Shown piece by piece: positions 468 to 30,342 of a DNA stretch of 30,342 nucleotides; the first letter of the stretch is position 1, and every line of letters starts with the position of its first letter. Location of the stretch: assembly GCA_027053075.1 (NCBI GenBank), contig JALUEE010000089.1:1-30342 (forward strand), given 5' to 3'. The position numbers and the translations under genes are program-made. The notes under the pieces were generated by a model. That model saw only the letters and a program-made list of their open reading frames with translations. It made no database searches and had not been told where the DNA came from. This DNA comes from a candidate division WOR-3 bacterium. Lineage in GTDB: Bacteria; Hydrothermota; Hydrothermia; B15-G9; WFZT01.

Positions 468-484
468 TGTTTGACACCACTAAA

Positions 485-528
485 TTTACCCATTCCACCC
501 CAACCCTCCCTTCCAGAGGAAGGGAGGG
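485..528. repeat. REP-like palindromic repeat, intact copy
   Basis: TTTACCCATTCCACCCCAA followed by perfect hairpin CCCTCCCTTCC-AGA-GGAAGGGAGGG (504-528). The first 27 nt match 29094-29120 at 25/27. Confidence 0.7.
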
Positions 529-644
529 AATTCGCTACTTATCATGCTTGGAGAAATTTGTTTAACCTCTTTTTTCTGGTCAATCTATTCACTCGTAGCT
601 ATAAAATAACCAGGGGAACATTTTCGAACAGGCTCGGAGAGCCC

Positions 645-7004: not shown

Positions 7005-7031
7005 CTCCCCACGCACTTTGTGCGTGGGGAG
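7005..7031. repeat. Perfect GC-rich hairpin, possible terminator of the minus-strand operon
   Basis: CTCCCCACGCAC-TTT-GTGCGTGGGGAG, ~85 bp past the AI-2E stop; followed on the minus strand by AATTTCTTT. Confidence 0.6.
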
Positions 7032-7117: not shown

Positions 7118-8269
7118 CTACTGCTCAGGTGTTTGCTTCGGGCTTTTGAAATAAAGGCCTTTGATTACTGCGGCTGTGGGGACAGCGAGGAGAAACCCGA
7201 GTGGGCCGAAAAATTTCGCACCGATCAGGATAGAGATTAAAATGATCAAAGGATGGAGTCCCACACTTCCACCGATAACCTTGGGTGAAATAACGGTACT
7301 CTCAAGTAACTGAACGACCACAAAGACCACTGTGACTTTGAAAACCCCGGATAATGGGTTCGGCTCGAGCAATCCAAGAATTATTGCGATAAAGTAACTG
7401 AGCCAGAAGCCAAGAGTTGGTACCAGATTAAATAGTCCTGCAAAGACACCGATGATGATGAAAAAGTCTATTCCTAAAATTCCAAGAAACGCCGCTGTCA
7501 GAAGCCCCACAATAAAGGCGTCAATCAACTGTCCCCTGAAGTATTTTCTCAAAATCTCCGCAATCTCGGTGAATACAAGATGGGCACGTTCGTTTCTGAC
7601 AAAAAGCTCAAAAGTCTTATTTTTGATTTTATCGTAATCCACAAGGGTGTAAAACGTAACGATGATTGACAGTATGAAATAAAACACATAGGTGGCAACG
7701 ACGGTCGCGGATTTGTAAAACGACGGCAATCTCTTTACAAATTCGCCCATAATAGTCCCGATATCAGGTAAGTTTTCAAAGACCTTTTTCAGAGCATCAT
7801 ATTTTGAGAATTTTTCAAGTGCCTGAGCTCTCAATTTCAGGAGAAATCCCGGCAACTTGGTGGTAAAAATGCTCAACTCCTTTGAGAATTGATGTCCCAC
7901 GTAAACCCCGATAAGAGTAAGCAACCCGAGAAACAGACTCAGGATTAAAATAGAAGTGAAGACCCGTGGAACGCGGTATTTTTCAAGTCTATCCACGAGG
8001 GGGGAGAGCAGGAAAGCGACCAGGAGCCCTAGACCAAAAGGGAAAAGCACATTTTTTAGCTTGGAGAGAAGTAAAAACAGAAAGAATGAAAGGGCAATAA
8101 CAAAGAGTGTGTTAGCAGTTGGATTTTCCCTTGCAAGGTAAAAGAGATACGCGGCAAGGCCGGAATACAGGATAGCAAGGTATTCAAGGGGAAAACCAAG
8201 ATAAATAGAGAGTATCAGAAGGATAAGCGCAGAAATGAAAAAGGCGATATTTTCAGTTGTTCTGGTCAT
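7118..8269 (-). CDS. AI-2E (PerM/UPF0118) family transporter
   Basis: AFLLSPLVDRLE, YFRGQL, NLVPTLG, QLLESTVISPKVIGGSVGLHP, GFLLAVP. Confidence 0.92.
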   Translation of the reverse strand: MTRTTENIAFFISALILLILSIYLGFPLEYLAILYSGLAAYLFYLARENPTANTLFVIALSFFLFLLLSKLKNVLFPFGLGLLVAFLLSPLVDRLEKYRVPRVFTSILILSLFLGLLTLIGVYVGHQFSKELSIFTTKLPGFLLKLRAQALEKFSKYDALKKVFENLPDIGTIMGEFVKRLPSFYKSATVVATYVFYFILSIIVTFYTLVDYDKIKNKTFELFVRNERAHLVFTEIAEILRKYFRGQLIDAFIVGLLTAAFLGILGIDFFIIIGVFAGLFNLVPTLGFWLSYFIAIILGLLEPNPLSGVFKVTVVFVVVQLLESTVISPKVIGGSVGLHPLIILISILIGAKFFGPLGFLLAVPTAAVIKGLYFKSPKQTPEQ

Positions 8270-12901: not shown

Positions 12902-15697
12902 TTATTTTCCTCCTAACTTCTTCAATTCCTTAATTTCTGCCGAGTCATTAGGATTGTTTTTAATCCAATCCTGAATGAGTCGTTTGAGCTGATTTGTATC
13001 TTTCTTCGCTTTGTAAATGGATTTGAGTGACTCATAAATCTCTCTATCCTTTGGTGTCATACTCAAAGCAATCTCCAGATTTTCAATTGCCTTTGTCGTA
13101 TCACCCTTTGCAAGATAGGTTAAACCAATCTGCTTGTAAAGTAAAGGTACCTTCTGGATTTGCATCGCTTCCTCGTAGTACTTAATTGCGTTGTCGTAAT
13201 CTCCCTTCTGCTTGTAGAGATTTCCAATCATGAGGTCAATTGCTATGATCTGACGAGAGACATCAGTGGCCTGTGGCTGGAATTTCAGGACCACCTCAGC
13301 AAGTTTTTTGGAGAAGTAAAGCTCATCAATCGCCTGATCAATAGAATCCTGAAAGCTGTAATAATAGCCCAGTCTCAGAGCAACGGATGCGAGGTTTCTC
13401 ACAAGTTTCAGGTGGGTTCCATCTTTATAAGTATTGTCAAAAATCCCTCTGTAACGGAAGATGCCCCATGGAGATTTGGCATTAGCATACTTTTTCAAAA
13501 ATTCTTTAACACTCATATTACCGTGCAGTAGGTACCTTGTTCTCTCAACATTCAAGCCCTCAGGGAATATACCAGAGGACACGTTGTGGTTCATCACCCT
13601 GAATGCCAGTCCTTCGCTCAAAAGATATTTGCTCCAGGGCCTATAAACATCAGGTGTAACAGTGAGTGCGAAATAGATGGGAACTTTAAATTTTGCACCC
13701 TTGATAACTTTATTCAAAAATGTATCCGGTGGTGCAAAATACAGCTTTGGCACCCTCAAGCCCGGAGTGAGCTGGACGTAGTCGTCTTCCTTAAATTTGT
13801 ATCCAGCGGACGTGGCTATCATATCCCTGATCATAATGTCTCTCAGGTAGAGAACTTTTCCACCGGGCATGAGTAGTGCAGGTGGTAACTTGTCTATTTC
13901 AGCCTTTGTAAAGCTTATAGGCGCGCCCCAGTCTTTGAGCTGCTTCACGTACCAGTTTGTGTTGATAAGCGAAAGATTGGCAATAATAACATCAGGCCGG
14001 TATCCAAGAACATCCTGATCAAACCAGAGTGGGAATGTATCATTATCTCCATTTGTGTAAAGAATCACTGGGCCACCGTTTGGATTCTTCCTCGGTGAAA
14101 TCAGAAGGTCGTAGGCATAATCCTCAGCCATGTAGTTGTGTGTTCTATCCACTATGGGCCAGAAATGTTTGAACTGATACCCCTGAAGTGCACCTACAAT
14201 CAATAAACCAGTTACAAGCCCTATTACCCATTTCTTCAGATAAACCGCCAGCAATCGCATTATTTCCCACACACCCAATCCCATGTATATGGCAAAATAG
14301 GTGTAGAATGGGGCAAAGAAGTAATCCCTATCCCTTACCTCTCTCGGATTTAACGGGTTGATTGGGGCGGTGGGAGAGTCCTTGAGGTTGAGGTAAATAA
14401 TGAGCCCGAGACTGCCCATAAGGAGAGCAGTTCCAACGAGCCAGAAAGTTTTCTTTTCATTACCGAAGTGAGTAACAAGACCAAGAAGTCCAAGGAAAGT
14501 AAGCGGTAGCACAAGACTTGCATACTGCCATGTGAAGTATCTCCAGAACAGAAGTAGCTGGTCTGTGAATGGAATCCTTCTTGGCAAAATTTTGGCAGGC
14601 TCGTACTGTTTTCTCAAAAGGGCGTCCATGAAGGACTTCCAGTTGGATGGGTCTGTTTCGTTGATCTTGGGATTATGGATAGCCCTCACCATCATGGTAA
14701 ATTCAGCGGAAAAGGCAACCACTATCAAGATAAGGGCAAATCCTTTCCAGTCTTTGTAAAGCTTCGCCTTAATGTAAAGAATTAAAATGTCGAGGAATGT
14801 CCCAATAATGAGTAGAATGGAGCTTTTTGTATAGAGCCCCACAAGAACCACTATAAAGCCACCTATGAAGAGCATAATCTGGAAGTCGTTGATGTCAAAG
14901 AGCTTCTTGTAGTAGAGATACCACGCCATTACAAGGAGCGAAACTATCATCAGGGCCACAGAGCCAGTCCCATATTCATATGTCAATTTCATGAGAGCAA
15001 TAAGGGCAAATGTAGCGGCCGTTACCACAAGAAATTCCATATCCCATATAAGCTTTGGCTTTACCACCCAGACAAAGACGAAAAGTGCAGGGAAGAATAT
15101 CAATGGCATCAGGTGAATCCCACTGGAGAGGAATAAGAAATAGAGTGAGAAGAGGATGTATCTTATGCTAACTGGACTGTCTTTATGTTCCCACCAGTTT
15201 AAGGCCACCCAGGTCAGGAAAACCATCACAAAAACTGATGGAGTGTAGGTCTCAGCCTCAATGGAGTTCATCCAGACTGTTCTTGCAAACGCTCCGATTA
15301 AACCGGCGAAAATACCTGCAATGTGGGCAAATGATTTTGGTACAGGTGCATCCCACTTTTCAATAATTTTTACCACGATAAGGTATGCAAATCCGGCGGT
15401 GAATGCGCCGGAAAGCATGGAAACAGATGTTATCTTCAGCACACTATTGACTGCTTCAGTCTTATTTATCAAATGGAAAAGAGGGGCAAGGGGGATGGGC
15501 ATTAGGTCCATAAATCTTCCAAGGATCACGTAAAGTGGCGTTCCTGGAGGGTGTGGTATTCCAAGGATGTGGGAGCAGGCGAGAAACTCACCTACATCCC
15601 AGAAAACAACGGTTGGTGCAGTGGTCATAAAATAAAAAAGCCACGTGAAGAAGGTTACAAGTGTAAAAATAATAGCTCGCGTCTTTTTCTCGTCCAT
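12902..15697 (-). CDS. DUF2723 / TMEM260-like GT-C glycosyltransferase with C-terminal TPRs
   Basis: PTVVFWDVGEF, GIPHPPGTPLY, EAETY, VRDRDYFF, NGDNDTFPLW; many TM helices; TPR motifs near the C-terminus; GGAGG SD. Confidence 0.88.
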   Translation of the reverse strand: MDEKKTRAIIFTLVTFFTWLFYFMTTAPTVVFWDVGEFLACSHILGIPHPPGTPLYVILGRFMDLMPIPLAPLFHLINKTEAVNSVLKITSVSMLSGAFTAGFAYLIVVKIIEKWDAPVPKSFAHIAGIFAGLIGAFARTVWMNSIEAETYTPSVFVMVFLTWVALNWWEHKDSPVSIRYILFSLYFLFLSSGIHLMPLIFFPALFVFVWVVKPKLIWDMEFLVVTAATFALIALMKLTYEYGTGSVALMIVSLLVMAWYLYYKKLFDINDFQIMLFIGGFIVVLVGLYTKSSILLIIGTFLDILILYIKAKLYKDWKGFALILIVVAFSAEFTMMVRAIHNPKINETDPSNWKSFMDALLRKQYEPAKILPRRIPFTDQLLLFWRYFTWQYASLVLPLTFLGLLGLVTHFGNEKKTFWLVGTALLMGSLGLIIYLNLKDSPTAPINPLNPREVRDRDYFFAPFYTYFAIYMGLGVWEIMRLLAVYLKKWVIGLVTGLLIVGALQGYQFKHFWPIVDRTHNYMAEDYAYDLLISPRKNPNGGPVILYTNGDNDTFPLWFDQDVLGYRPDVIIANLSLINTNWYVKQLKDWGAPISFTKAEIDKLPPALLMPGGKVLYLRDIMIRDMIATSAGYKFKEDDYVQLTPGLRVPKLYFAPPDTFLNKVIKGAKFKVPIYFALTVTPDVYRPWSKYLLSEGLAFRVMNHNVSSGIFPEGLNVERTRYLLHGNMSVKEFLKKYANAKSPWGIFRYRGIFDNTYKDGTHLKLVRNLASVALRLGYYYSFQDSIDQAIDELYFSKKLAEVVLKFQPQATDVSRQIIAIDLMIGNLYKQKGDYDNAIKYYEEAMQIQKVPLLYKQIGLTYLAKGDTTKAIENLEIALSMTPKDREIYESLKSIYKAKKDTNQLKRLIQDWIKNNPNDSAEIKELKKLGGK

Positions 15698-17710: not shown

Positions 17711-17753
17711 CTGCGTCATTCTCCACGTGCGAAGCACGTGGAGAATGACGCAG
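17711..17753. repeat. Perfect 20-bp stem hairpin with GAA loop
   Basis: CTGCGTCATTCTCCACGTGC-GAA-GCACGTGGAGAATGACGCAG; no U-tract after it. Confidence 0.75.
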
Positions 17754-18010: not shown

Positions 18011-19630
18011 ATGAAATATCTCTTGTTAGTATTATTGGGAGTCGTGTGGGGTGGTGAAATCTCCCACCATCTATCAGGAATTCCCGCCGCAGAAAGGGGG
18101 AACATCTCTATTTACCTTGCCTCTCAAAATCCAGATGTTTCAAAAACACTGAAAGATGCCAGTGAGCTATGGAATAGAGGCTCTTATGAAAAGGCGATTG
18201 AACTGATAAATAGAGCAGAGAAGGTTGACCCAGACATTATTCTTGGAAAGGAATATAGAGACCCCGCATCCACAATGAGATGGGGTAATGAGGTTCTATT
18301 GAACCAATACCCCTGGAAAAGTCGAACCCTTGAACTTGTGCGTAATCCAAACACGGGCAATCTATTCATGGCAATAAAGGCAGATACTGGAACTGGAAGC
18401 AGTAAAAGATACTTCGCACAACTATTTTTCTCAAACGATGGAGGAGAAACCTGGAGTAGAACGGCGAGCTGGACTATTCCCAATGGAACGAAGTTAAATT
18501 CCTATAACATCGCAGAGCTCGATACCTTTATCTACATGGTTCAGGCATGGAATGGAAGGGATGTTTTCTTCGTGAGATACAATGCAAATACGGGGCATTT
18601 TGATAACTCTTATGGAGCCCATTATGTCATTTCACCATCAGATACCATTAAAGAAATAGTGATTGAACCTAACAGGTACTTTCATAACACCCTTTACATT
18701 GCATTTATCACGATGGATCATAATCTATTCTATTATTATTCAGCTGACCCATACACCTCATGGCAAGAGATAAACACAGGAGTAACAAATGCTTATAAAG
18801 GACTAGACGCAAGTTACGGGTACACACCTTCCTCGGGACATTACATCTGGCTATCTTACATCAACACAAATGACAGCCTGGATGTCCTCGCGAGAGCAAA
18901 TGGTAGCTGGGATACTCACCTGGGACTATCAGCGGCAGAGCCACATCCAACCTCAATTGCCATGCACGGTGATACTGTTATAGTTCTTTTCGCATACCAG
19001 TATGCGAGCCATGTGGGGATAAGATACAAAATATCTTATAACGACGGGGGACACTGGTACTACGGAACATTTAACGCTACAGATGACACAGTGTATGTGA
19101 GTGATGTTACCGGTAACGGAAATAACGGATGGAACGTTATTTACACATCCTATCATTATTTGTCGGCGTCTGAGGATGTTAAATATCTGCACAGAGGGTA
19201 TGGTTCCGGGCAATGGTCTTCTCCTCTTACCTTAAATAGTCATGATGCGATGACGACGTATAAACCCGTGATTGAGTACATTGGAGGTGGAAACTATGGT
19301 GTTGCCTATGTAGCTGATAACTATGATGTTTATTTTAACAGATCCGACTGGGTCGATGTTGCCGAGCCCCCCGTAAATGTGGAAAAACCATTCTCATTTA
19401 TGGCAGTGACAGAAGGAAGAGTCGCCACACTGGAATTTACTTTAAAGACTTCAGGAATTGCAAACGTCAGGATTTACAACGTGTCTGGCTCTCTCATCAA
19501 ATCCTATACAGTTTCTGCTCATGATGGAGTGAACAGAATAGCTTTCAATGCCCGGATGCCCGGTGTATATATTGCGAGACTCGAATTCAAGGGGAGAGTA
19601 GCTGGTACTAAATTTGTTTTGTTGAAGTGA
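18011..19630 (+). CDS. Secreted Asp-box (BNR) beta-propeller protein with T9SS type-A-like C-terminal sorting domain
   Basis: Signal peptide MKYLLLVLLGVVWG; FSNDGGETW and SYNDGGHW Asp-boxes; C-terminal VRIYNVSGSLIK...PGVYIARL...KFVLLK. GGAGG SD favours ATG 18011. Confidence 0.8.
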   Translation: MKYLLLVLLGVVWGGEISHHLSGIPAAERGNISIYLASQNPDVSKTLKDASELWNRGSYEKAIELINRAEKVDPDIILGKEYRDPASTMRWGNEVLLNQYPWKSRTLELVRNPNTGNLFMAIKADTGTGSSKRYFAQLFFSNDGGETWSRTASWTIPNGTKLNSYNIAELDTFIYMVQAWNGRDVFFVRYNANTGHFDNSYGAHYVISPSDTIKEIVIEPNRYFHNTLYIAFITMDHNLFYYYSADPYTSWQEINTGVTNAYKGLDASYGYTPSSGHYIWLSYINTNDSLDVLARANGSWDTHLGLSAAEPHPTSIAMHGDTVIVLFAYQYASHVGIRYKISYNDGGHWYYGTFNATDDTVYVSDVTGNGNNGWNVIYTSYHYLSASEDVKYLHRGYGSGQWSSPLTLNSHDAMTTYKPVIEYIGGGNYGVAYVADNYDVYFNRSDWVDVAEPPVNVEKPFSFMAVTEGRVATLEFTLKTSGIANVRIYNVSGSLIKSYTVSAHDGVNRIAFNARMPGVYIARLEFKGRVAGTKFVLLK

Positions 19631-19675
19631 AAGGAGTGGGTGTGCCCGCCTTCGGCGGGCACACCCACTCCTTTC
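19629..19675. terminator. Bidirectional terminator-like perfect 22-bp hairpin between convergent genes
   Basis: GAAAGGAGTGGGTGTGCCCGCC-TTC-GGCGGGCACACCCACTCCTTTC, overlapping the stop at 19628-19630. Confidence 0.7.
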
Positions 19676-19713
19676 TCTCCTTCAAGCCCCCTTTGTCACA
19701 GAAATCTCTGAAT

Positions 19714-27313: not shown

Positions 27314-28986
27314 GTTTCCTGAATCCGGGATTTCTCTACCTCCTGCCACTTGTGGCACTCCCTTTTATCATCCATTTATTTGCAGCAAAGGTGCAGAGAC
27401 GGGCAAAATTTTCGTGGGTACGCCTCTTAAGGAGTGCCCAATATGAGGGGAAAAAGCGAAGACGCCTGCTCGAGATTCTTATCCTCATTCTGAGAAGCCT
27501 CGCTATCCTGAGCCTCATAATGCTTGCAGCAAGGCCATTCCGGGGTGAGCTTTTCAAATTTAGATACTTCGTGGTGGACTTCTCCCCCAGCGCAAGGCAC
27601 GACACATCAAAAATTTTCTCCATCGCAGAAAAGGTCAAAAGCAAGGGGCTTGATGTTTATTTTCTTGATGACAGGCTCTATGAGAAGCCGGTTATATACG
27701 ACATGCCCGCCCGTTTTAAAAAATTAGGAAGCCTTGGGAAACCTGCCATCATTTTGAGTGATTTTCAGAGTTCCAATGTTTCAGATTTCAAGGACACAAG
27801 TTTTCTTGCGGTAAAGCTCAGACCACCCCGAGATGAGCTTAAAGTCCTTGGAGTGAGGGTTCAGCCCGGAATTACCATGCAGGGCTTTGAGGCAAGCTTA
27901 AAGGTATTCCTGAAGGCAACCCGTCGGATGGCAGTTAGACTTAATCTTTATCGAGAAGAAAAACTAATTGCCGGTGGCAACTTTGAGGTTAATCCTGACA
28001 GTGTGAACCAGCTAAACCTCAAATTCATCCCGGAAAAGGGAGGTATATGGAAGGTAGAAGTGCTCCCGCTCGATGAACTGCCGCAGGACAATGTTAGATA
28101 CTTTAACCTCACCGTGCTCGAAAGGCTTCGCGTGGGAATTATAGGAAACAACAGATTTATTGCAAGAGCATTGAATCCCTTCCGGATAAAAAATTACCCC
28201 GTTCAGGTGACAGAGAATATTCAGACAAATTTTGCAGGATTTGACGCGATCTTCCTCACCAATCCCGATTTACCTCTTGAGAGGCTCATCATGGTAATCC
28301 GCTACGCTGAATCCGGTGGAAACTTAGTGATTTTTACCGATAAGATCACAGCCCCCATCATCAACGCCCTTGGACTTAATATCGAACCGGTGGAATCGGC
28401 TAAAGTGGTAATTGAAAAGGATACCCTGACCTTCCCACGGGCTATTGCTTTTGGGGACGGGAAGGCCATCCTCGGGGACTCAAAGGGGAAAAAAATTGCA
28501 GTAATCAAGCCATTCTCAAAAGGCAGACTCGTCCTGGTGGGTCTGCCTGCGGATGTCAGCGAAACTTTATTCCCCATATCTCCATCATTTGTTCCGTTTG
28601 TTTATTCATTGCTGGAAAGGCTCTTTAACGTCAAAACAAATACCCGTGTAACCACCGCTGGCACCCCCTGCATTTCCATTATAGATTCAAACCTGACGGT
28701 TGTTACACCTGAGGGGAAAAGAGCGTCCTGTAAGGACTTAAACTTTCCGAAAGTAGGATTTTACCGTGGAAAGTGGAGCTTTGGAATAAATCTTCCTCCA
28801 TCTGAAGCAGAGGAGAGGTTTTTAAGTGACAAGGAACTTGACGACCATTTCAAAGCACATACATCGCTTGAAAATTTCGAAAATATTGTCAGAAGCTCCC
28901 GCAGTTTCACGTTAATCTTTGTCTATTTCCTGATCTTCTACGTCCTCGTCGAATCCCTCATACTTGGGTGGAAATTTAGATTGTAA
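27310..28986 (+). CDS. BatA (N-terminal double-TM) domain membrane protein
   Basis: MSFLNP.FL.LL..ALP.IIHL, FS.V.LL, LILILRSLA...AARP, degenerate vWA (D.SPS, ILSDFQ), DN.RY, C-terminal TM. Confidence 0.85.
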   Translation: MSFLNPGFLYLLPLVALPFIIHLFAAKVQRRAKFSWVRLLRSAQYEGKKRRRLLEILILILRSLAILSLIMLAARPFRGELFKFRYFVVDFSPSARHDTSKIFSIAEKVKSKGLDVYFLDDRLYEKPVIYDMPARFKKLGSLGKPAIILSDFQSSNVSDFKDTSFLAVKLRPPRDELKVLGVRVQPGITMQGFEASLKVFLKATRRMAVRLNLYREEKLIAGGNFEVNPDSVNQLNLKFIPEKGGIWKVEVLPLDELPQDNVRYFNLTVLERLRVGIIGNNRFIARALNPFRIKNYPVQVTENIQTNFAGFDAIFLTNPDLPLERLIMVIRYAESGGNLVIFTDKITAPIINALGLNIEPVESAKVVIEKDTLTFPRAIAFGDGKAILGDSKGKKIAVIKPFSKGRLVLVGLPADVSETLFPISPSFVPFVYSLLERLFNVKTNTRVTTAGTPCISIIDSNLTVVTPEGKRASCKDLNFPKVGFYRGKWSFGINLPPSEAEERFLSDKELDDHFKAHTSLENFENIVRSSRSFTLIFVYFLIFYVLVESLILGWKFRL

Positions 28987-29093
28987 TACCAATATCGATT
29001 TAGAATTATCCTAATTTTTTCCAACAGTGTCAGGTGGAACTTTTTATACAAAACACGACCATAAGGTGCACTATGTATGAGTCCGAAATATTG

Positions 29094-29120
29094 TTTACCC
29101 ATTCCACCCCGGCCCTCCCT
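29094..29120. repeat. Left half of the REP-like repeat, interrupted by IS110
   Basis: TTTACCCATTCCACCCCGGCCCTCCCT is 25/27 identical to 485-511. Similarity ends inside the left arm of the palindrome. Confidence 0.7.
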
Positions 29121-29179
29121 CCTATAATGTTTGTTGTTATTTATTAGGGTTATCACTCACAATATAGAGAAAAACTTTA

Positions 29180-29355
29180 GGGGAGGTGGAATGAGTGGTT
29201 TTTAGATCTTTCCCCTCCTTGGGGCTTGACCCCGGCGGGAAGATTGGTCCCTCCACCTGGGGTATAAGCCTGGATTGTTATTTGTGCCTGAATCACTCGA
29301 TTCAGGAGGTTAGGCTATACCCACTTCGGTGGAGGATTCCACTCTCCACCTCCTC
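29180..29355 (+). ncRNA. Candidate IS110 bridge/seek RNA
   Basis: Closing stem 29182-29198 with 29339-29353. Hairpin 1 at 29205-29245 and hairpin 2 at 29250-29335 each have an internal loop; loop sequences resemble the insertion junction. Folded by eye only. Confidence 0.65.
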
Positions 29356-29379
29356 AAAAATAAAAAAAGGAGGTCTAAC

Positions 29380-29991
29380 ATGGATAAGTTATATGTAGGC
29401 ATAGACGTAAGCTCAAAAGAACTATTCGCCTCCTTCCTCGATGATAATTCAAACCCCGTCATATCCTCCGCTAAATACCCCAATACCCCTGACGGCTGGC
29501 ATGACATCTCCCAACTCATATCCTCACTCTCCAAAAACTTCAAAATCGTCTGCGGCCTCGAATCCACCGGTGACTTCCATATCGGTATCCTACACACCCT
29601 CGAAGCCATGGATAACATTGAAGTTCATCAACTCAACCCCGCATCCGTCCGTTACTTCGCTAAAGCACTCAACGTCAGTGCCAAAACTGACCGTATCGAT
29701 GCTCAAATTATAGCCCGCTACCTGGCCACTATCAAACCTCAGGGAGACTATCACGTTCCACTCTTCCTCCAACGCCTGCGTCATCTCGTTCGCATAAGAC
29801 GTACCTTCATAGAGAATATGGCCTCTTTAAAAAATCAATTGTACCATATACTGAGAATTTATTTCCCTGGATACAGGATTCTTGTGAAGAGTGGGTTACC
29901 TATCAGTTTTCTACACATACTCCAGAGATTTCCATCACCACATTTAATACTGGGAGCTGGAGAAGAGGAATTAATGAAGATAAGGGTTGGG
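29380..29991 (+). pseudogene. IS110-family DEDD transposase/recombinase, N-terminal ~204 aa
   Basis: YVGIDVS, GLESTG, NPA, AKTDRIDAQIIA; AGGAGG SD before ATG 29380. The C-terminal catalytic-Ser domain is cut off; the frame reads into IS3 and stops at 30021. Confidence 0.92.
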
Positions 29992-30216
29992 TGTCAAGTC
30001 CTGAAATGTGTTGACATTTAAAAGGGGGACTCCCCTCAGCATGGCCTACCTCCTCTCTTCACCTCAAATCCCTCTATCTCTACCTCCCCACTGTACACCT
30101 CACTCGGCGTCGCATACCCCAACGACTGATGCGGCCTCTCCTCATTGTACAACTCTATCGCCTCCTCCACAGCACCCCCTATCCCACTCTTAAATACTTC
30201 TTCCAATCCGTTATTC
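29992..30216 (-). mobile_element. Second, shorter IS3-family 3' remnant
   Basis: Reverse complement of 244-467 with one substitution and a 1-nt insertion; starts TGTCAAGTCCTGAAATGTGTTGACA. Confidence 0.88.
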
Positions 30217-30342
30217 GGGTGTTAGAATAATTTTGTGTAAGGAGTACAATATAATACTCCCCCAGGTCCGTAGGACCTGGGGGCAAAAATTACATCATAA
30301 GGAGGTTCTACTATGACTGATTATAACACAAACCAGCATAAA
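30217..30342 (+). mobile_element. Left end of the probable IS256-family IS (second copy), transposase start at 30313 running off the window
   Basis: Exact reverse complement of 1-126; AAGGAGG at 30299-30305, ATG at 30313. Confidence 0.6.

Follow-up and report, generated by a model that had tools for sequence, protein, structure and literature searches.

RNA-guided site choice is established for IS110 elements of the IS621 type (PMC11208160, PMC11208158), in which a split promoter is brought together across the joined ends (PMC11208160), and insertion of IS110 elements into REP sequences at a fixed base has been published (PMC1525189). The IS110 element described here shares with IS621 of E. 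coli (PMC11208160, PMC11208158; PDB 8WT6) a recombinase of the DEDD plus serine type, a CT core and an AU/GU handshake, as well as a long left end from which target and donor loops are predicted to form, a split promoter and a target that is a multi-copy extragenic palindrome. It differs from IS621 in its distant protein (E-value 1.4e-22; 431 vs 328 aa) and in its guides, several variants of which coexist within one genome, and its target is BoxC-like rather than an E. coli REP. As described for ISPpu9, ISPpu10, ISPa11, ISRm19 and other IS that target REP (PMC1525189; 10.64898/2026.03.19.712850), a fixed base of the repeat is broken by all copies and the flanks rebuild the repeat; as described for ISPpu10 (10.64898/2026.03.19.712850), the right guide is strict and the left guide lax. 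Unlike these REP-targeting elements, it belongs to another phylum and another repeat class, enters the palindrome from either arm, and resides in a genome in which no RAYT was found. Our reading, which we hold with high confidence, is that an IS621-type IS110 inserted at the CT of the left arm of a hairpin repeat, its site likely chosen by base pairing of a bridge RNA from the left end of the element.

The window (the whole stretch of DNA analyzed, 30,342 nt) is contig C89 of a 2.44-Mb genome, hereafter G000, which comprises 114 contigs, is 95% complete and has 84% of its length spanned by ORFs of at least 150 aa. Its sister genome, G004, was used for empty-site and synteny comparison. A match to the IS110 was obtained in 5 of 60 relatives, with a close match in G004 only, and a scan of the genome contigs with the full IS110 protein found no wider homologues. 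Among 17 loci listed from a metagenome pattern scan, only two (L027, L040) represent the G000-type IS110; the bridge-RNA alignment comprises nine left ends, drawn from G000, from G004 and from two metagenome loci. Both ends of the window carry the same two foreign element ends, inverted (29992-30342, 1-467). Elsewhere the window holds an intergenic hairpin near 7005 that belongs to the second repeat family described below (7005-7031), a perfect 20-bp intergenic stem (17711-17753), a 32-bp intergenic stem (19619-19685) and, on the minus strand (12902-15697), a gene for a TMEM260-like protein O-mannosyltransferase of 931 aa with TPR repeats. Features of the IS110 locus and its target are listed in Table 1.

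Table 1. Coordinates of the IS110 copy, its target repeat and adjoining elements in the window.
Feature	Position	Strand	Details
Longer composite repeat unit bearing the empty copy	471..635	+	140-165-nt matches on about 10 other contigs
Intact (empty) subtype-1a hairpin repeat	490..528	+	Pyrimidine tail 490-501, left arm 504-514, loop 515-517, right arm 518-528
Interrupted subtype-1a repeat, left part	29099..29120	+	Tail 29099-29110, left target 29112-29118
CT core, inferred crossover dinucleotide	29119..29120	+	Junction comparison; single CT at G004 empty site
IS110 left non-coding end, type A	29121..29379	+	Perfect -10 hexamer 29123-29128
Predicted target-binding loop	29205..29249	+	Left guide ~29211-29219, right guide 29238-29242, handshake AU 29243-29244
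Predicted donor-binding loop	29267..29316	+	Left guide ~29275-29281, right guide 29304-29308, handshake GU 29309-29310
IS110 recombinase gene, first 204 codons only	29380..29991	+	RuvC-like DEDD domain kept, serine domain lost
End of multi-copy integrase-core (rve_3; IS3/IS481-type) element, truncates IS110	29992..30216	-	Inverted copy 244-467
End of further multi-copy element, at contig end	30217..30342	+	Inverted copy 1-126

The ORF from 29380 matches DEDD_Tnp_IS110 (PF01548) with an E-value of 2e-24, and this is the sole family domain that the window copy keeps. The full-length recombinase has 431 aa and is encoded by two whole copies of 1,739 nt each (C98, C14), the one on C98 carrying both IS110 family domains; aligned to the recombinases of IS621 and ISCro4, the full copy has the catalytic residues D9, E61, D104, D107 and S313. 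In G000 this IS110 has 14 left and 12 right ends, with CT at 13 of the left junctions and at all 12 right junctions. TTGACA lies 14 nt before the core in every right end and TATAAT 2 nt after the core in every left end; in the sequence made by joining a right to a left end, the two hexamers are 18 nt apart. The left ends fall into two types, A and B, which are about 80% alike, and four right-end variants exist in G000. None of the type-A copies, to which the window copy belongs, is assembled whole. Ends of other IS elements repeatedly truncate IS110 copies (in the window and on C23, C52, C61 and C109, and at L073 and L077), and the ORFs of the G000 copies, 90-100% alike, have a patchy identity profile, as if coding regions recombine between guide types. 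Every feature of the IS621 group that sequence can test is present, and on this basis the IS110 of the window belongs to that group.

The target is best seen in the intact copy near the start of the window, which consists of a 12-nt pyrimidine tail, 2 nt and an 11-bp perfect stem closed by a 3-nt loop, with the equivalent of the CT core at 510-511. Over 490-514, pyrimidine tail and hairpin arm show 8 mirror matches out of 11. The composite unit in which this copy lies has a conserved terminal motif (621-632), and its left part is replaced by an IS remnant that ends at 467. This palindrome, hereafter family 1, occurs in 107 copies in G000 and in none in five block shuffles, and it is mostly intergenic (9 of the 107 centers lie within ORFs of at least 150 aa). 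Two subtypes are revealed, 1a (57 copies, including that of the window) and 1b (49 copies), with one copy in neither; a 1b copy is found within 250 nt of 27 of the 57 1a copies. The exact 1a motif is present in two of the six genomes of the genus. A second hairpin family, family 2, has 210 pattern matches in G000, a few of them spurious.

The earlier note called this palindrome REP-like. The target does share with REP sequences that it is a short, multi-copy, extragenic palindrome, often in inverted pairs. In REP sequences sensu stricto, the hairpin has a tetranucleotide, GTAG or CGTC, at its foot. In the aligned family-1 copies the foot bears a pyrimidine tail instead of either tetranucleotide, and a search of the 95% complete G000 for a RAYT gene (Y1_Tnp, PF01797) gave no matches. 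The target resembles the BoxC/TM class more than the RAYT-linked REP. Like the BoxC/PIT/TMECO triplex repeats of E. coli (PMC4666352), it is about 36-40 nt long and intergenic, with a pyrimidine tail that mirrors one arm of the purine/pyrimidine hairpin; it also has paired subtypes, as do BoxC/TMECO, with linkers that resemble the TTA and CCG types of Table 1 in PMC4666352. The length given there for BoxC/TM is 34-37 nt, compared with 39 nt here. Unlike BoxC as described in that paper, the sequence is lineage-specific, and an intrastrand triplex, examined in vitro by CD or NMR in that paper, is a putative fold here. PMC4666352 reports no link to mobile elements, whereas the G000 repeats are targets of an IS110. 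A literature search, outside which lay ISfinder and most subscription papers, found no paper on IS110 in BoxC-type repeats.

At the window copy, a match of 25 out of 27 nt between 29094-29120 and 485-511 had been claimed from the sequence, with a break in the left arm where the IS starts. Sequence comparison confirms both points: the match ends at arm base 8 (511 = 29120), and from 29121 the sequence is common to the IS copies. A 67-nt contig of run X1 spans 29080-29146 with 0 differences at a depth of 62.9, compared with 60 for the flank; its 26 letters on the IS side are below the 31-letter bridging rule, and X1 may be the source sample. A contig of a related strain in run X4 covers 28924-29120 and stops one base later. 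The right junction of this copy is unreadable because another IS truncates the IS110 at 29991 and the contig runs out at 30342. When the empty allele of the locus was sought in G004, that genome was found to diverge just after the upstream gene, and the repeat is absent there. A joint of 29120 to 29991 in run X1 was considered as an empty allele and rejected, as it equals a paralogue on C101 (about 7543-7609), which is also the nearest empty paralogue of the window site (39 of 41 nt identical). The proposal that the window itself contains an empty/filled pair consequently survives in part: the intact copy matched at 485-511 is present, but it is a paralogue, one of 57, rather than the empty allele of this locus, and the right half of the filled site is lost.

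The junctions of the other copies show the target more completely. All nine type-A left junctions stop within the left arm of family 1, eight of them in subtype 1b; the window copy is the sole one in 1a. Site numbers of the two subtypes are about equal, and the 8:1 preference for 1b has a one-sided binomial p of 0.02. At eight of the 12 right junctions the sequence continues with TCC, followed by a short loop and GGAAG; all eight are of subtype 1b, five with a tail and three without; among the left 1b junctions, five are tail-less and three tailed. Family 2 hosts five type-B left junctions and four right junctions. Left and right junctions of other copies thus sit in repeats and not in unrelated flanks, as the earlier note had expected: the type-A left junctions all lie in a repeat arm, and each of the 12 right junctions continues a repeat. 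The target family it proposed needs amending. A hairpin repeat family is indeed hit, but the usual target is 1b, not the 1a of the window, and the second guide variant leads to a different hairpin family.

To place left and right flanks together, we used synteny with G004. This linkage was tried for six type-A left flanks and succeeded for three, and in all three linked pairs the type-A left end pairs with a TCC right flank. G004 joins the left flank on C23 to the right flank on C52 via an intact repeat with one CT; this empty site is truly orthologous and gives the clean empty/filled pair. Two more pairs are linked by G004: C33 with C30, for which G004 has about 550 additional nt separating two repeats, and C96 with C35, where G004 carries another repeat cassette. 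C56 was paired with another left flank (C92), and C16 and C50 were without a partner. For the extra 550 nt or so (L061:2290-2844), which include a short ORF, G000 has no long match; there, one IS110 connects both repeats (C33:177484 / C30:52125), and the absence of the segment from G000 possibly reflects a deletion between repeats or between IS copies. Comparison of L063 of G004 with C56 and C92 places two left junctions opposite one another on either side of a single intergenic gap, which suggests two IS110 copies of opposite orientation in one repeat cluster.

At four left junctions (C50:14210, C56:13494, C22:16137, L067:1503), three additional bases repeat the start of the respective left end (CCT in type A, TCT in type B), and on C98 one base at the core is extra or changed. 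Candidate sources of the extra bases are slippage, a shifted crossover, or a scar plus re-insertion. When traces of excision were sought, the empty family-2 repeats showed no diagnostic scar and family 1 gave just two ambiguous cases.

The left end encodes a predicted bridge-RNA-like fold, in which we read the guide positions by the IS621 bridge-RNA layout of PMC11208158. Compared with shuffled sequences, 29175-29360 folds with a z of -6.5 into two stems with internal loops. Over the nine left ends, 272 of 272 stem cells are paired, with variable loops and two one-sided changes; a double compensatory stem change was sought across these nine and not found, as they are close kin. The handshake AU and GU are invariant in all nine and equal to those of wild-type IS621, and the guide loops vary (five left-loop and four right-loop variants).

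The predicted guides match both target and donor. The type-A right target guide matches 5-7 nt at the eight TCC right junctions and only the core at the other four; reciprocally, the type-B right target guide matches 7 nt at the four family-2 right junctions and only the core at the other eight. At the eight 1b sites the type-A left target guide agrees with the sequence at 7-9 of 9 nt, compared with 6-7 of 9 at the window site, and the type-B left guide matches 8 of 9 nt at two of five type-B left junctions and 2-4 of 9 at the other three. On the donor side, the right guide is AGGAG with left ends that start with C (3/3 rows) and AGAAG with those that start with T (6/6), so that pairing is restored in each. 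Two G004 loci depart from these rules: at the right junction L015 a T stands in place of the C predicted by the available right guides, and at L077 a left end that starts with C lies within a family-2 repeat, with the guide loop lost.

By analogy with IS621, end-to-end joining in a circle would bring perfect -35 and -10 hexamers together at a spacing of 18 nt, from which the bridge RNA would be driven. The target loop of this RNA would pair on the left of the core over 7 nt and on the right with CT-TCC, and its donor loop with the junction of the element itself. Strand exchange at CT by the DEDD/serine recombinase would follow. We infer the expression of the bridge RNA, the formation of the circle and the recombination of this IS110 from that likeness, and routes besides circle insertion have been reported for a related element (10.1101/2025.10.25.684509). 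Since the guide spells the sequence of about 100 mostly intergenic repeats, genes suffer little from the spread of the IS110. The window copy went into a slightly off-consensus site, of subtype 1a, and was afterwards truncated; it is inactive in cis.

Could the repeat halves belong to the ends of the element, or the repeats be footprints of IS110? The filled copies on C33 and C101 have a tail similar to that of the window copy, and an extra CCT is found in two empty family-1 copies. Against this, the 27-nt segment that the earlier note feared might travel with the IS is found at the window copy only, which makes it target rather than element end, and the 14 left junctions of G000 share only their last bases. 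The flanks vary among copies, the repeat is entered from either arm (five from the tail-less and three from the tail side, at left and right junctions alike), and there are 107 empty copies compared with nine filled ones; the intact repeat at the orthologous empty site in G004 refutes the reading, to which we give almost no weight. It is just as hard to credit that insertion occurs at CT nearly at random and that only copies in intergenic repeats survive. The repeats are indeed mostly intergenic, as the small share of centers in long ORFs indicates, and selection may for this reason sharpen the insertion pattern. But family-1 CT-TCC sites make up 237 of the 303,356 CT dinucleotides, all type-A copies use the same arm base, and selection leaves unexplained why the match between guide and target switches between types A and B.

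More serious, although we consider it unlikely, is that targeting depends on the folding of the repeat DNA into a hairpin or triplex as well as on guide pairing, with the fold rescuing badly matched sites, for example the three of five type-B ones at which the left-guide match is poor. In readable right flanks, 12 of 12 junctions lie in a hairpin, and an effect of the stem-loop has been reported for ISPpu10 (10.64898/2026.03.19.712850). The stem in ISPpu10 lies 5′ of the core, however, whereas here the core is inside the left arm of the hairpin. Moreover, among CTTCC sites at which the left guide matches at least six of seven positions, hairpins account for 209 of 276, and for 165 of 195 outside ORFs, so that eight of eight in hairpins would be expected 11-26% of the time from sequence alone. 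Fold and guide match thus go together at most such CTTCC sites, the eight hairpin sites are unremarkable, and a structure gate may exist but is not needed for this IS110. Guide pairing at the CT of the repeat arm is the reading that we retain.

A gene of a different kind is also found among these repeats. The only DUF559 gene of G000 (L041:1501-1815 = C26:16563-16877), which encodes a stand-alone nuclease, has five family-2 BoxC-like repeats around it, inverted, in a RAYT-like layout. Two of 19 other DUF559-matching loci in the phylum (L087, L089), among the strongest matches, have one repeat on each side within about 40 nt, and the other 17 have no framing repeats. Our literature search, with most subscription papers outside it, found nothing linking DUF559 to palindromic repeats. 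One might imagine this IS110 lineage as a specialist parasite of BoxC/triplex repeats that reads both fold and sequence and rewrites its guide loops to track the subfamilies generated by a DUF559 nuclease cassette. We regard this as quite unlikely; if true, reprogrammed bridge RNAs serving one recombinase would be available as a natural collection, and BoxC structure could be read out in vivo.

The known mechanism of IS110 elements is unchanged by the case of G000. What is new is an unusually readable example of known RNA-guided targeting, with a target of BoxC type, and the range of repeat targeting by IS110 now includes the BoxC/triplex class and an uncultured lineage. The run with the best coverage is labeled a hydrothermal vent metagenome, and the intact copies may merit a look as editing tools. 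With two guide sets, recombinases that are 90-100% alike, two repeat families and a matching change in the donor guide, G000 offers a natural test of the bridge-RNA rules.
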